The translations under genes were made by a program, and so were the position numbers. A stretch of 64,000 bases of DNA from Escherichia coli (GTDB lineage Bacteria > Pseudomonadota > Gammaproteobacteria > Enterobacterales > Enterobacteriaceae). The stretch lies in assembly GCF_041886205.1 (NCBI RefSeq), contig NZ_CP169029.1; one strand, written 5' to 3'. Under the pieces are notes generated by a model that worked only from the letters and a program-made list of their open reading frames with translations, did not search any database and was not told the origin of the DNA. Shown here in pieces: positions 46,795-51,632 of this stretch (positions are counted from its first letter, which is position 1; each line of letters opens with the position of its first letter).

Positions 46795-47351
46795 TGATGG
46801 GAAAACTGATTTGGTTAATGGGGCCGTCCGGCTCCGGGAAAGACAGCCTGCTGGCGGAACTCCGCCTGCGGGAACAAACTCAGTTACTGGTGGCGCATCG
46901 CTACATCACGCGCGATGCCAGCGCCGGAAGTGAAAACCATATCGCCCTGAGCGAGCAGGAGTTTTTTACCCGCGCGGGGCAAAATCTGTTGGCCTTAAGC
47001 TGGCACGCTAACGGTCTGTATTATGGCGTCGGCGTCGAGATTGATCTCTGGCTGCACGCCGGATTCGACGTGCTGGTCAACGGCTCACGCGCCCATCTGC
47101 CGCAGGCGCGGGCGCGCTATCAATCGGCGCTGCTGCCCGTCTGTTTACAGGTTTCGCCGGAGATCCTCCGCCAGCGCCTGGAAAACCGTGGCCGTGAAAA
47201 CGCCAGTGAAATTAACGCCCGCCTGGCGCGCGCCGCCCGCTATACTCCACAGGATTGCCATACGCTCAACAATGACGGCAGCCTGCGCCAGTCGGTCGAC
47301 ACGCTGCTGACGCTGATCCATCAGAAGGAGAAACACCATGCCTGCTTGTGA
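46794..47351 (+). CDS. phnN: ribose 1,5-bisphosphate phosphokinase PhnN
   Basis: 185 aa; P-loop [10 protein letters not shown]. Confidence 0.94.
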
Positions 47352-47772
47352 GCTTCGCCCGGCCACGCAGTACGACACCGACGCGGTTTACGCGCTGATT
47401 TGTGAGCTAAAACAGGCGGAGTTTGACCACCACGCGTTTCGCGTGGGTTTTAACGCCAATCTGCGCGACCCAAACATGCGCTACCATCTGGCGCTGCTTG
47501 ATGGCGAAGTTGTCGGCATGATCGGCCTGCATTTGCAGTTTCATCTGCATCATGTCAACTGGATCGGCGAAATTCAGGAGTTGGTGGTAATGCCGCAGGC
47601 GCGCGGTCTGAACGTCGGCAGTAAGTTACTGGCGTGGGCAGAAGAAGAAGCCCGCCAGGCCGGGGCCGAAATGACCGAACTTTCGACCAACGTGAAGCGC
47701 CACGACGCGCACCGTTTCTATCTGCGCGAAGGCTACGAGCAGAGCCACTTCCGCTTCACCAAGGCGCTGTAA
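47338..47772 (+). CDS. phnO: aminoalkylphosphonate N-acetyltransferase PhnO
   Basis: 144 aa; GNAT fold. Confidence 0.93.
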
Positions 47773-47773
47773 C

Positions 47774-48532
47774 ATGAGCCTGACCCTCACGCTCACCGGC
47801 ACCGGCGGCGCACAGGGCGTTCCGGCATGGGGCTGCGAGTGTGCGGCCTGCGCCAGAGCGCGGCGCTCGCCGCAGTATCGCCGCCAACCGTGCAGCGGCG
47901 TAGTGAAGTTTAACGACGCAATCACCCTGATCGACGCCGGGCTGCACGATCTCGCCGATCGTTGGTCGCCCGGATCGTTCCAGCAGTTTTTGCTGACGCA
48001 TTATCATATGGATCACGTCCAGGGGCTGTTTCCGCTGCGCTGGGGCGTTGGCGATCCGATCCCGGTTTACGGCCCGCCGGATGAACAGGGCTGCGACGAT
48101 CTGTTTAAACATCCGGGCCTGCTTGATTTCAGCCACACGGTGGAACCGTTTGTGGTGTTTGATTTGCAGGGGTTACAGGTCACGCCCCTGCCGCTCAACC
48201 ACTCAAAACTGACCTTCGGTTATCTGCTGGAAACGGCACACAGCCGGGTGGCGTGGCTGTCTGACACCGCAGGCTTGCCGGAAAAAACGCTGAAATTTTT
48301 ACGCAATAATCAGCCGCAGGTAATGGTGATGGATTGCAGTCACCCGCCGCGCGCGGATGCACCGCGTAATCACTGTGATTTAAATACCGTGCTTGCGCTG
48401 AATCAGGTTATCCGCTCGCCACGGGTGATTCTGACCCATATCAGCCACCAGTTTGATGCGTGGCTGATGGAAAACGCACTACCGTCAGGGTTTGAGGTGG
48501 GGTTTGATGGGATGGAGATTGGGGTGGCGTGA
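47774..48532 (+). CDS. phnP: phosphoribosyl cyclic phosphodiesterase PhnP (metallo-beta-lactamase fold)
   Basis: 252 aa; HxHxDH motif ([10 protein letters not shown]). Confidence 0.94.
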
Positions 48533-48540
48533 TGAGAGGG

Positions 48541-48660
48541 AATGTGCGCGCTGGCCCCCTCACCCTAACCCTCTCCCCAGAGGGGCGAGGGGACCGATTG
48601 TGCTCGATATTGAATATTGCGCTCGTTTTCTCCCTCTCCCCATTGGGGTGAGGGGCGATG
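48541..48660. repeat. paired G/C-rich palindromic intergenic repeats (BoxC-like)
   Basis: two copies of CCCTC(A/T)CCC...GGGG(C/T)GAGGGG-type imperfect palindromes; family name uncertain. Confidence 0.4.
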
Positions 48661-48678
48661 CCTGCTCCATACCCAACC

Positions 48679-49008
48679 TCATCGCCCATACTCATCTTCC
48701 ATTCTCCGCTCTTCATCCTCCAGTTGCCGACGCTCCTGATCAAGCTGGCGCTGGCGATCGTCCAGCTGCCTGCGGCGATCTTCAAACTGGCGGCGGCGGT
48801 CGTCATATTGTCTGCGCCGATCGTCGCTCACTTCACGCTGCCAGCCGTCGTCGCGCGAATCTTCATAGTCTCGCCCACGGTCAGGGTTATAAGCGTCATT
48901 AATCGCCTGCTGAATATTGCCAATGGTGTCGTCGATAATATCGGCCTGGGCCGGAACGGTGGACAGCGTGAGCAGGGTGAATAAAAGAAATAGCGGAAAG
49001 CGTTTCAT
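48679..49008 (-). CDS. yjdP: secreted low-complexity protein YjdP
   Basis: 109 aa; signal peptide MKRFPLFLLFTLLTLSTVPAQA followed by D/E/R/Q-rich repeats. Confidence 0.8.
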   Translation of the reverse strand: MKRFPLFLLFTLLTLSTVPAQADIIDDTIGNIQQAINDAYNPDRGRDYEDSRDDGWQREVSDDRRRQYDDRRRQFEDRRRQLDDRQRQLDQERRQLEDEERRMEDEYGR

Positions 49009-49076
49009 TAGCCAACCTCAAAAAGAAACTCTATCCACATTAATCATTACTCATCCATGCAAGTAGTGGATGAATC

Positions 49077-49394
49077 TCAATTTCTCCGCTGCTCTATTGC
49101 CGTAATCGCCTCCACGCGTTGTTGATGACGACCGCCTTCGTACTGTGCGCCCAGCCACGCATCCACAATCATTTTTGCCAGTTCGAGGCCAACCACTCGT
49201 GAACCAAAAGCCAGTGCAACTTCACTGGCGTAATGCGGATAATCAGTGCGCTCTGACGACCTGGTTTCTTTATCAATCCCCTCACTCATTGACCATGAAT
49301 AAAAGGCTGGCACAGCAACACAGAATCCTGCGGTGCCAGCGACATGACCGCCCATTGCTCCGGTACGTTTTTTAATAAAAAACACCGGTTGCAT
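49077..49394 (-). pseudogene. rpiB: rpiB-like remnant (ribose-5-phosphate isomerase B fragment)
   Basis: 105-aa ORF; C-terminal about 60 aa (SSERTDYPHYAS...FGSRVVGLELAKMIVDAWLGAQYEGGRHQQRVEAITAIEQRRN) match my recollection of RpiB; the catalytic-loop segment is missing and the N-terminal 40 aa are unrelated. Confidence 0.6.
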
Positions 49395-49646
49395 TGATTA
49401 ATTGTGCTCAGTATTTGCCGAAGTACAATATATATAATAAATATATAAAACACCTCATATTATTTACAGAGATAATAAATTCGCGTACTTTTCCCTCTTC
49501 AGCACAAATGCCTAATAAAATGGCGCGTTCAGCTCACACTTCCACTTATTAAAGTCGCAATTTCCCAATTATGATAACGCCAGCTTTAAATGACGTATTT
49601 TGCATGGATTACATATTTACGACATAAATGATAAATGGAGATTTAT

Positions 49647-51632
49647 ATGAATAACTCTCGGTTATTCCGTTTGAGCAGGATTGTTATTGCGTTAACTGCC
49701 GCCAGCGGCATGATGGTAAATACCGCTAACGCGAAAGAGGAAGCGAAAGCCGCCACTCAATATACCCAACAGGTTAATCAGAATTACGCCAAATCATTAC
49801 CGTTTAGCGATCGTCAGGATTTTGACGATGCCCAGCGTGGATTTATCGCCCCGCTGCTGGATGAAGGTATTCTGCGTGATGCGAACGGTAAAGTTTACTA
49901 CCGCGCGGACGATTACAAATTTGATATTAATGCCGCAGCGCCGGAAACCGTAAACCCCAGCCTGTGGCGTCAGTCGCAAATCAACGGTATTTCTGGCCTG
50001 TTCAAAGTCACCGATAAAATGTATCAGGTGCGCGGCCAGGATATCTCTAACATTACGTTCGTTGAGGGCGAGAAAGGCATTATTGTTATTGACCCACTGG
50101 TGACGCCACCTGCCGCAAAAGCCGCACTTGACCTTTACTTCCAGCATCGTCCGCATAAACCGATTGTTGCCGTTATCTACACTCACAGCCACACTGACCA
50201 CTATGGTGGCGTGAAAGGTATTATCTCTGAAGCCGATGTTAAATCCGGCAAAGTTCAGGTGATTGCCCCTGCAGGCTTTATGGACGAAGCCATCAGCGAA
50301 AACGTGCTGGCGGGTAACATCATGAGCCGCCGTGCGCTCTACTCTTACGGTCTGTTACTGCCGCACAACGCGCAAGGCAACGTGGGTAATGGCCTTGGCG
50401 TGACGCTGGCAACGGGCGACCCGAGCATTATTGCACCGACTAAAACTATCGTCAGAACTGGCGAGAAGATGATTATTGACGGCCTGGAGTTTGACTTCCT
50501 GATGACCCCAGGTAGCGAAGCGCCAGCCGAAATGCACTTCTATATTCCGGCCCTGAAAGCCCTGTGTACCGCCGAGAACGCCACGCATACCCTACACAAC
50601 TTCTACACTCTGCGCGGCGCGAAAACCCGCGATACCAGCAAGTGGACCGAGTACCTGAACGAAACGCTGGATATGTGGGGTAACGACGCGGAAGTCCTGT
50701 TTATGCCGCACACCTGGCCGGTCTGGGGCAATAAGCATATCAATGATTATATTGGTAAATATCGCGATACTATCAAGTACATTCACGACCAGACCCTGCA
50801 CCTGGCGAACCAGGGCTACACCATGAATGAAATCAGCGACATGATTAAGCTGCCGCCTGCACTTGCCAATAACTGGGCCAGCCGTGGCTATTACGGTTCT
50901 GTCAGCCACAACGCCCGCGCGGTGTATAACTTCTATCTTGGCTATTACGACGGTAACCCGGCTAACCTGCATCCGTATGGTCAGGTGGAGATGGGTAAAC
51001 GTTACGTGCAGGCGCTGGGCGGTTCTGCCCGTGTCATCAACCTAGCGCAAGAAGCGAACAAGCAAGGTGATTACCGCTGGTCGGCAGAACTGCTGAAACA
51101 GGTGATTGCCGCCAACCCGGGTGACCAGGTCGCGAAGAATCTGCAAGCGAATAACTTTGAACAGCTGGGCTATCAGGCCGAATCCGCCACCTGGCGCGGT
51201 TTCTACCTGACCGGCGCGAAAGAGCTGCGCGAAGGGGTGCATAAGTTCAGCCACGGCACCACCGGTTCCCCGGACACCATTCGCGGGATGTCGGTCGAAA
51301 TGCTGTTCGACTTTATGTCCGTTCGCCTCGATAGCGCGAAAGCCGCGGGTAAAAATATCAGCCTGAACTTCAATATGAGCAATGGCGATAACCTCAACCT
51401 GACGCTGAACGATAGCGTGCTTAACTACCGTAAAACACTGCAATCCCAAGCTGACGCCTCTTTCTACATCAGCCGTGAAGATCTGCACGCCGTGCTAACC
51501 GGGCAAGCCAAAATGGCGGATCTGGTAAAAGCGAAGAAAGCCAAAATTATTGGCAATGGCGCGAAACTGGAAGAAATTATCGCCTGTCTGGATAATTTCG
51601 ATTTGTGGGTGAATATCGTAACCCCAAATTAA
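49647..51632 (+). CDS. yjcS: putative alkyl/aryl sulfatase YjcS (metallo-beta-lactamase plus SCP2-like domains)
   Basis: 661 aa from [13 protein letters not shown]...; signal peptide; HSHTDH metal motif. Confidence 0.9.

Follow-up and report, generated by a model that had tools for sequence, protein, structure and literature searches.

The window that we analyzed is a 64,000-nucleotide stretch of Escherichia coli DNA that carries, on its minus strand, a gene annotated in RefSeq as "DDRRRQL repeat protein YjdP." A reading of the window made from the sequence alone (hereafter the sequence-only reading) had called this gene yjdP, and rightly so: at the DNA level it does not differ from yjdP of E. 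coli K-12 MG1655 (100% identity), and its inferred product matches the NCBIfam equivalog NF041443, which bears the same name, over the whole profile (positions 1-101 of 101) with 147.9 bits against a curated cut-off of 90 (E 8.9e-44). A search with a local copy of Pfam gave nothing above cut-off for YjdP; the newer family PF28054 (YjdP) appears only as a precomputed annotation, which is carried by all of the homologues. Nor does the protein have a Pfam match, at E <= 1, to the LTXXQ profile of the Spy/CpxP periplasmic chaperones. The presence of yjdP in 5,404 of 5,426 complete E. coli genomes makes it a core gene. The literature that we searched contained no functional study of yjdP or of the YjdP family, in agreement with the earlier statement that the function of the protein is unknown. 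The heptad repeat with which this report is mainly concerned is already known and so is not new, as it gives the curated family (NF041443/PF28054) its name. The features of the gene and of its upstream region are as follows.

49066..49079, minus strand: RcsB-box-like motif TGAGATTCATCCAC (family consensus TGAGATTCCTCCGC), overlapping the stop codon of an rpiB remnant
49037..49042, minus strand: candidate -10 hexamer TAATGT (family consensus TAacgT, with T, A and the last T conserved)
49016..49019, minus strand: Shine-Dalgarno sequence GAGG, 7 nt before the ATG, with GAG conserved in the upstream alignment
48679..49008, minus strand: yjdP coding sequence, 109 aa plus stop codon
48943..49008, minus strand: signal peptide, aa 1-22, consisting of MKR, a hydrophobic core and AQA, then D, a layout seen in 70 orthologues
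48955..48981, minus strand: three degenerate 9-bp units, TTCACCCTG CTCACGCTG TCCACCGTT, encoding FTL LTL STV (the K-12 state)
48889..48942, minus strand: conserved amphipathic helix at the start of the mature protein, aa 23-40, DIIDDTIGNIQQAINDAY
48826..48888, minus strand: acidic linker, aa 41-61, of variable length (conservation 0.51, with gaps; AlphaFold2 pLDDT ~52-62)
48700..48825, minus strand: heptad array, six in-frame 21-bp units, aa 62-103, of which four near-perfect units occupy 48742-48825
48679..48699, minus strand: C-terminal acidic tail EDEYGR and stop codon, as read from the sequence

The sequence-only reading had placed imperfect tandem repeats of about 21 bp at 48690-48840, an interval that correctly brackets the array, and the four heptads that it quoted are those given by translation. 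The complete array reads DDRRRQY/DDRRRQF/EDRRRQL/DDRQRQL/DQERRQL/EDEERRM, with the consensus (D/E)-D-R-R-R-Q-(L/Y/F). The first heptad corresponds to aa 62-68 (48825-48805), the fourth ends at 48742, and the last two are degenerate; EDEYGR, which follows EDEERRM, can be counted as a further degenerate unit, giving two to three of these in all. Tandem Repeats Finder reported a repeat of period 21 at 48753-48825 (3.5 copies, 75% matches, score 76). Self-comparison likewise revealed the period: nucleotide identity at a lag of 21 within the array was 0.63, as compared with 0.35 +/- 0.05 after codon shuffling (0 of 5000 shuffles reached 0.63), and the identity of the protein with itself at a lag of 7 was also reached by 0 of 5000 shuffles. 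The tandem repeat itself is thereby borne out.

Two other features were called over the same DNA on the opposite strand. A terminator-like hairpin at 48788-48805 (plus strand), which lies inside the array and antisense to yjdP, is probably a by-product of runs of CGG and CGC (CGN-rich) codons. An antisense open reading frame of 108 aa at 48658-48984 (plus strand) was rejected as a mirror of the yjdP repeat; alleles differ from one another chiefly at the third bases of codons read in the yjdP frame.

The array forms the C-terminal part of a modular protein. Read from the sequence, the N-terminus, MKRFPLFLLFTLLTLSTVPAQA|D, looks like a Sec signal peptide, with an n-h-c layout and an A-x-A cleavage motif, in keeping with the earlier proposal that the heptads stand behind such a peptide. 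YjdP has no lipobox cysteine and is therefore not a lipoprotein. The mature protein is predicted to begin with an amphipathic helix (hydrophobic moment 0.52) bearing the motif DIIDDxIGNIQQAINDAY, in which the mean frequency of the commonest residue is 0.86 among 71 sequences, with no gaps. The array is almost as well conserved (0.83, in columns without gaps, among the same number of sequences). Between these two modules lies the acidic linker; counted from where the N-helix motif ends, the first hydrophobic residue in register comes after 19-36 aa, depending on the species. The linker is thus another low-complexity tract that varies within the family; its length differs by species, and in Raoultella planticola (L052:3001-3351) and at two other loci (L068 and L066) it has short repeats of its own (DDRYDDDRYDDGRY and similar). 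The 87 residues of mature YjdP include 20 R, 19 D, 10 Q and 9 E, such that 55% are charged and the net charge is -8; in the array itself the charges almost cancel (16 basic residues, 17 acidic).

Charged residues account for 33 of the 48 positions of aa 62-109, and the array contains 36 pairs of opposite charge at spacings i/i+3 and i/i+4, whereas shuffled versions contain 21 +/- 3.4 (0 of 10,000 reach 36). Conversely, like-charge pairs at i+3/i+4 number only 2, against 19.8 in shuffles, a value beyond all 10,000. The heptad order acid-acid-base-base-base would maximize salt bridges within the helix, since nearly every i/i+3 and i/i+4 contact would join opposite charges and hardly any would join like ones. 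Together with the presence of one hydrophobic residue in seven, this order leads us to infer a stiff helix stabilized by salt bridges. High charge and dense opposite-charge pairs at i to i+3/i+4 are what is expected of a single alpha-helix (SAH); by composition the comparison is equivocal, in that SAHs are rich in Glu, Lys and Arg, and the array is Arg-rich but has mainly Asp as its acid and contains no Lys.

Secondary-structure and coiled-coil prediction had been suggested from the sequence alone as a check on the repeat. AlphaFold2 drew one continuous helix at aa 53-108 (56 residues, pLDDT 87-96) and assigned low confidence to the rest of YjdP. The hydrophobic a and d core of a canonical coiled coil is lacking. 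Family-wide, a hydrophobic residue occupies position 7 of the heptad in 99% of cases, but position 4 in only 4%; in the window protein, with the d positions reading YFLLLM, the a positions read RRRQRE, while g is mostly R and e is D or E. The array would thus fold as a stiff rod of ~6-8 nm with a single seam of leucine and aromatic residues rather than as a classical coiled coil, and this rod would probably be monomeric. Three considerations temper this reading. First, Asp, which makes up most of the acid, forms helices less readily than Glu, the usual acid of SAHs, and there is no Lys. Second, one hydrophobic residue per heptad, combined with R/D pairs in the style of g-e', could still allow self-association. 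Third, the confidence of the AlphaFold2 helix says little about oligomeric state, as the program tends to draw long confident helices for sequences of this kind whatever that state may be, and the alignments contained only 19-21 sequences.

The main competing explanation is accordingly that the array is a coiled-coil oligomerization domain, in which the d stripe and Arg-Asp g-e' pairs zip together two or three chains of YjdP, or YjdP and a partner. We give it a modest though real chance of being correct. The strict heptad period, the nearly invariant hydrophobic residue at position 7 and the complementary charges at g and e are all as a coiled coil would have them, but at position a the residue is R, Q or E and almost never a hydrophobic one. 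As a proxy for a dimer, we modeled with AlphaFold2 a tandem construct in which two mature copies are joined by a 30-residue Gly-Ser linker. It showed no confident packing, and the pLDDT of the helix was lowered; its pTM of 0.44 is nonetheless compatible with contact. A Foldseek search with the tandem construct found no match in the PDB, neither to a hairpin nor to a bundle. A profile search of PDB sequences returned only insignificant coiled-coil matches (E >= 0.03), of which the weak ones to a GCN4-adhesin fusion and to M protein (E 0.03-0.09) could be counted in favor of oligomerization.

Alternatively, the C-terminal region could be a disordered polyampholyte whose bulk charge does the work; in the stressed periplasm it might, for instance, buffer lysozyme or cationic antimicrobials or serve them as a decoy. 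The charge of the mature protein as a whole and the richness of the region in Asp would fit such a role, as would the joint induction of yjdP and the genes for two lysozyme inhibitors, ivy and mliC (see below). Bulk charge, however, needs neither the strict seven-residue order that is conserved in the family nor the near absence of like-charge pairs, and the near neutrality of the array and the confidence with which AlphaFold2 predicts its helix also argue against disorder of this kind, which we regard as improbable. The salt-bridged helix remains the preferred reading of the array.

The sequence-only reading had held that arrays of this sort are prone to slippage and copy-number variation, and independent variants do exist. 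When a 309-bp allele that is shorter by one heptad was used as the query, 16 records matched at 99% or more and 2 at 95-99%; other 309-bp alleles are found in four more records (three of ST2747 and one of EC42405), and one E. coli strain carries an in-frame deletion of 72 bp in the array. At least three in-register deletions of 21 bp arose independently in E. coli, two of which remove different units, and one 21-bp deletion lies between 9-bp direct repeats, GATCGCCGC, of the UTI89-type allele. An allele of E. albertii has a duplication of 42 bp that adds two heptads. The protein database contains further 102-aa forms, as well as in-frame indels that are out of register, and one 102-aa allele is widespread in public assemblies. 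These variants lend weak support to the view that the array is slippage-prone. They are what could be cited in favor of a contingency or VNTR locus whose copy number varies with the strain. Such variants are rare, however, amounting (the figures are bounds) to at least 23 and at most ~92 of ~5,405 complete E. coli records, the upper bound being taken from a ranking of 5,403 records.

Comparison among species also tells against such a locus. A scan of one genome per species yielded 72 loci from ~20 genera of the Enterobacteriaceae, and at the 70 species loci at which the open reading frame could be defined, 68 had exactly six in-register hydrophobic heptad positions and the other 2 had five. 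Individual heptads are conserved as such, without homogenization; heptad 4, for instance, has Q at its position 4 in all 71 sequences. At the DNA level, any two units share 13-17 of 21 nt, and the longest exact matches in register are 7-8 nt. The first four units have a mean pairwise identity of 0.706, and peptides back-translated with the codon usage of three neighboring genes, which gives a crude estimate, have 0.698 +/- 0.035; at positions with the same residue, the codon is identical in 16 of 31 cases, as compared with 14.6 expected. Neither comparison gives a sign of recent duplication or gene conversion among the units. Since the identity of the units is that which the protein imposes, the DNA repeat is a by-product of the protein repeat. 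A VNTR has near-identical DNA units and frequent differences in copy number, and the array has neither; we regard a contingency locus as largely refuted and highly improbable. The sequence-only reading was to be abandoned if the number of repeats proved invariant and self-comparison showed no periodicity. Variants and periodicity both exist, yet the array is not hypervariable. We infer that purifying selection acts on the six-heptad length.

Length variation in yjdP resides in a different repeat, one of 9 bp in the signal peptide, that the sequence-only reading had missed. In other E. coli strains the hydrophobic core of the signal peptide contains 3-7 units of a VNTR, TTCAC(G/C)CTG (Phe-Thr-Leu), and yjdP alleles of 339-375 bp differ in this peptide and not in the heptad array. 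A 260-nt query representing the expanded allele matched 300 records at 99% or more, 401 at 95-99% and 264 at 90-95%, so that an expanded array, in several copy-number states, is present in ~965 of 5,405 E. coli records (~18%). Loci with the expanded repeat include L001:1528-1572, L002, L085 and L086. The 9-bp repeat is thus usable as a length marker among strains of E. coli.

We now turn to the region upstream of the gene. The upstream regions of the 70 species have otherwise diverged, but TTGAGATTCCTCCGCTAC is common to them at a fixed distance from the start codon. All 70 loci have a match to the pattern TNRGAN4TCYN within 140 nt upstream, which in 69 of them is located between -71 and -75 relative to the ATG, against a background rate of 0.019 per 140 nt. 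It resembles the RcsB box, for which the published consensus is TN(G/A)GAN4TC(T/C)NA (PMC7913699) and which the yjdP box fits except for the final A (its right half is TCCGC). In the window the motif is 23 nt upstream of the candidate -10 hexamer, which would center it near -42; RcsB homodimer sites are usually located just upstream of the -35 region (PMC5651002). Expression data point the same way: in an RNA-seq study of LolCDE inhibition, yjdP rose 9.5- and 10.6-fold, together with osmB, bdm, wca, rcsA, ivy and mliC, but also with Cpx- and σS-dependent genes (PMC5105897). In a separate study, yjdP was 3.5-fold repressed upon induction of CsiR, with a genic ChIP peak (PMC5217608). We consider it likely that yjdP is activated by phosphorylated RcsB, which, as part of the Rcs envelope-stress response, would switch the gene on through the box just upstream of the -35 region. 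Against Rcs control stand the missed final A, the inclusion of Cpx and σS genes in the response to the LolCDE inhibitors, and a scan with the σ70 consensus, which found no promoter upstream of yjdP. The conserved box offers a direct handle on the regulation of the gene.

The start of the gene shows a further feature in other members of the family. In most genera (for example, at L014, L032, L066 and L079) an inverted repeat, AAGCCAG ... CTGGCTT, extends from about -30 to +3 of yjdP with a minimum free energy (MFE) of -13 to -21 kcal/mol. It brackets the Shine-Dalgarno sequence and reaches the ATG, and its 5' arm may lie upstream of the transcriptional start site. Its pairing was 73%, as compared with 70.1% in shuffles (3 of 500 reached the observed value), and its covariation was 0.221, as compared with 0.185 (8 of 500), indicating some compensatory changes. 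The inverted repeat is absent from K-12 and from the corresponding segment of the window (49006-49048, minus strand; MFE -2.3). Rfam gave no match in 47000-51000 of the window.

Downstream of yjdP in the window lie phnP and phnO, in convergent orientation and in the same place as in K-12, and phnP is convergent with and downstream of yjdP in ~60 of the 70 species, while the upstream neighbor varies. This constancy might be taken to mean that YjdP serves the phosphonate (C-P lyase) pathway, but the convergent orientation means that phnP and yjdP are not co-transcribed, eight of the species loci have none of phnP, phnO, rpiB, alsR and yjcS within 3 kb, and the conserved promoter motif resembles an RcsB box at a gene known to be induced by envelope stress; we hold this to be the least probable of the explanations considered and read the adjacency as inherited synteny rather than as shared function.

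Several other features of the neighborhood vary among strains. A GC-rich palindromic repeat element of ~120 bp at 48540-48660 (ccctcaccctaaccctctcccc...ggggcgagggg) fills the 146-bp spacer between phnP and yjdP in K-12 and in the window, and is missing from UTI89, AVS0542 and others, whose spacer measures 27 bp. One paper (PMC5100583) includes the yjdP-phnP interval in a list of G-quadruplex-hairpin elements. Upstream of yjdP the window is not K-12-like: a 105-aa remnant of RpiB (49077-49394, minus strand), with a replaced N-terminus and an internal deletion, is directly followed by a gene for a 665-aa YjcS-like alkyl-sulfatase (49635-51632, plus strand), and from this succession the allose (als) operon appears to have been deleted. 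Strain EC42405 is annotated with the same 318-bp rpiB-like coding sequence. In EHEC, the place of the als genes, between yjcS and yjdP, is taken by the OI-167 island with lmvK/lmvR (PMC10128022). Finally, E. coli O145 (L003:1485-1814) and Escherichia sp. E1V33 (L026) have a second haplotype of the 5' end of yjdP, encoding MKPYSTLFLF..., with a different upstream region, and a recombination breakpoint seems to lie within the first ~40 bp of the gene.

Taken together, the repeat finds an ordinary explanation: it is the name-giving repeat of an annotated gene that belongs to the E. coli core, and not a hypermutable locus. On balance we favor the interpretation that the 21-bp periodicity mirrors in the DNA an ancient repeat selected at the level of the protein, which would be a small, Sec-exported, RcsB-induced stress protein containing a six-heptad, salt-bridged, SAH-like rod. 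What remains of interest is the strikingly fixed number of heptads and the resemblance of the charge pattern to that of single alpha-helices. YjdP would then be a non-enzymatic periplasmic stress protein whose rod serves as a spacer or as a regularly charged binding surface and whose N-helix is the docking end. We offer a more detailed proposal, that of an RcsB-induced, periplasmic Asp/Arg charged single alpha-helix that acts as a length-defined spacer or probe of six heptads anchored by the N-helix, only tentatively, and it is doubtful that it holds in full. If it were true, YjdP would add a new structural protein to the Rcs response.

How, then, does YjdP compare with known systems? With respect to NF041443/PF28054, the window protein is a member from which nothing sets it apart, and the annotation of the family is a descriptive name without a function. 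The canonical heptad coiled coil is a general structural class with which YjdP shares the heptad periodicity and the hydrophobic stripe. The second core position is missing from YjdP, however, and no solved coiled coil is a sequence relative of it at significant E-values. A likeness of another kind is to the small envelope proteins induced by Rcs (osmB, bdm, ivy, mliC, ypeC, ycfJ and others), which are co-induced with yjdP upon LolCDE inhibition and with which yjdP shares an RcsB-box-like motif by the presumed -35 region, although the proteins are unrelated in sequence. A further parallel is with the charged single alpha-helices (SAH, ER/K motif; PMC5347031; PMC5812594), which have in common with YjdP heptads of the order acid-acid-base-base-base; de novo heptads of the form AEEEXXX (X = K or R) are reported to form single alpha-helices (PMC5347031). 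The likeness, which implies no homology, extends to the dense opposite-charge pairs, the lack of an a/d core and the long continuous predicted helix. YjdP departs from these helices in using Asp, Arg and Gln in place of Glu, Lys and Arg, in having one conserved Leu, Tyr or Phe in each heptad, and in being a bacterial protein that is exported.
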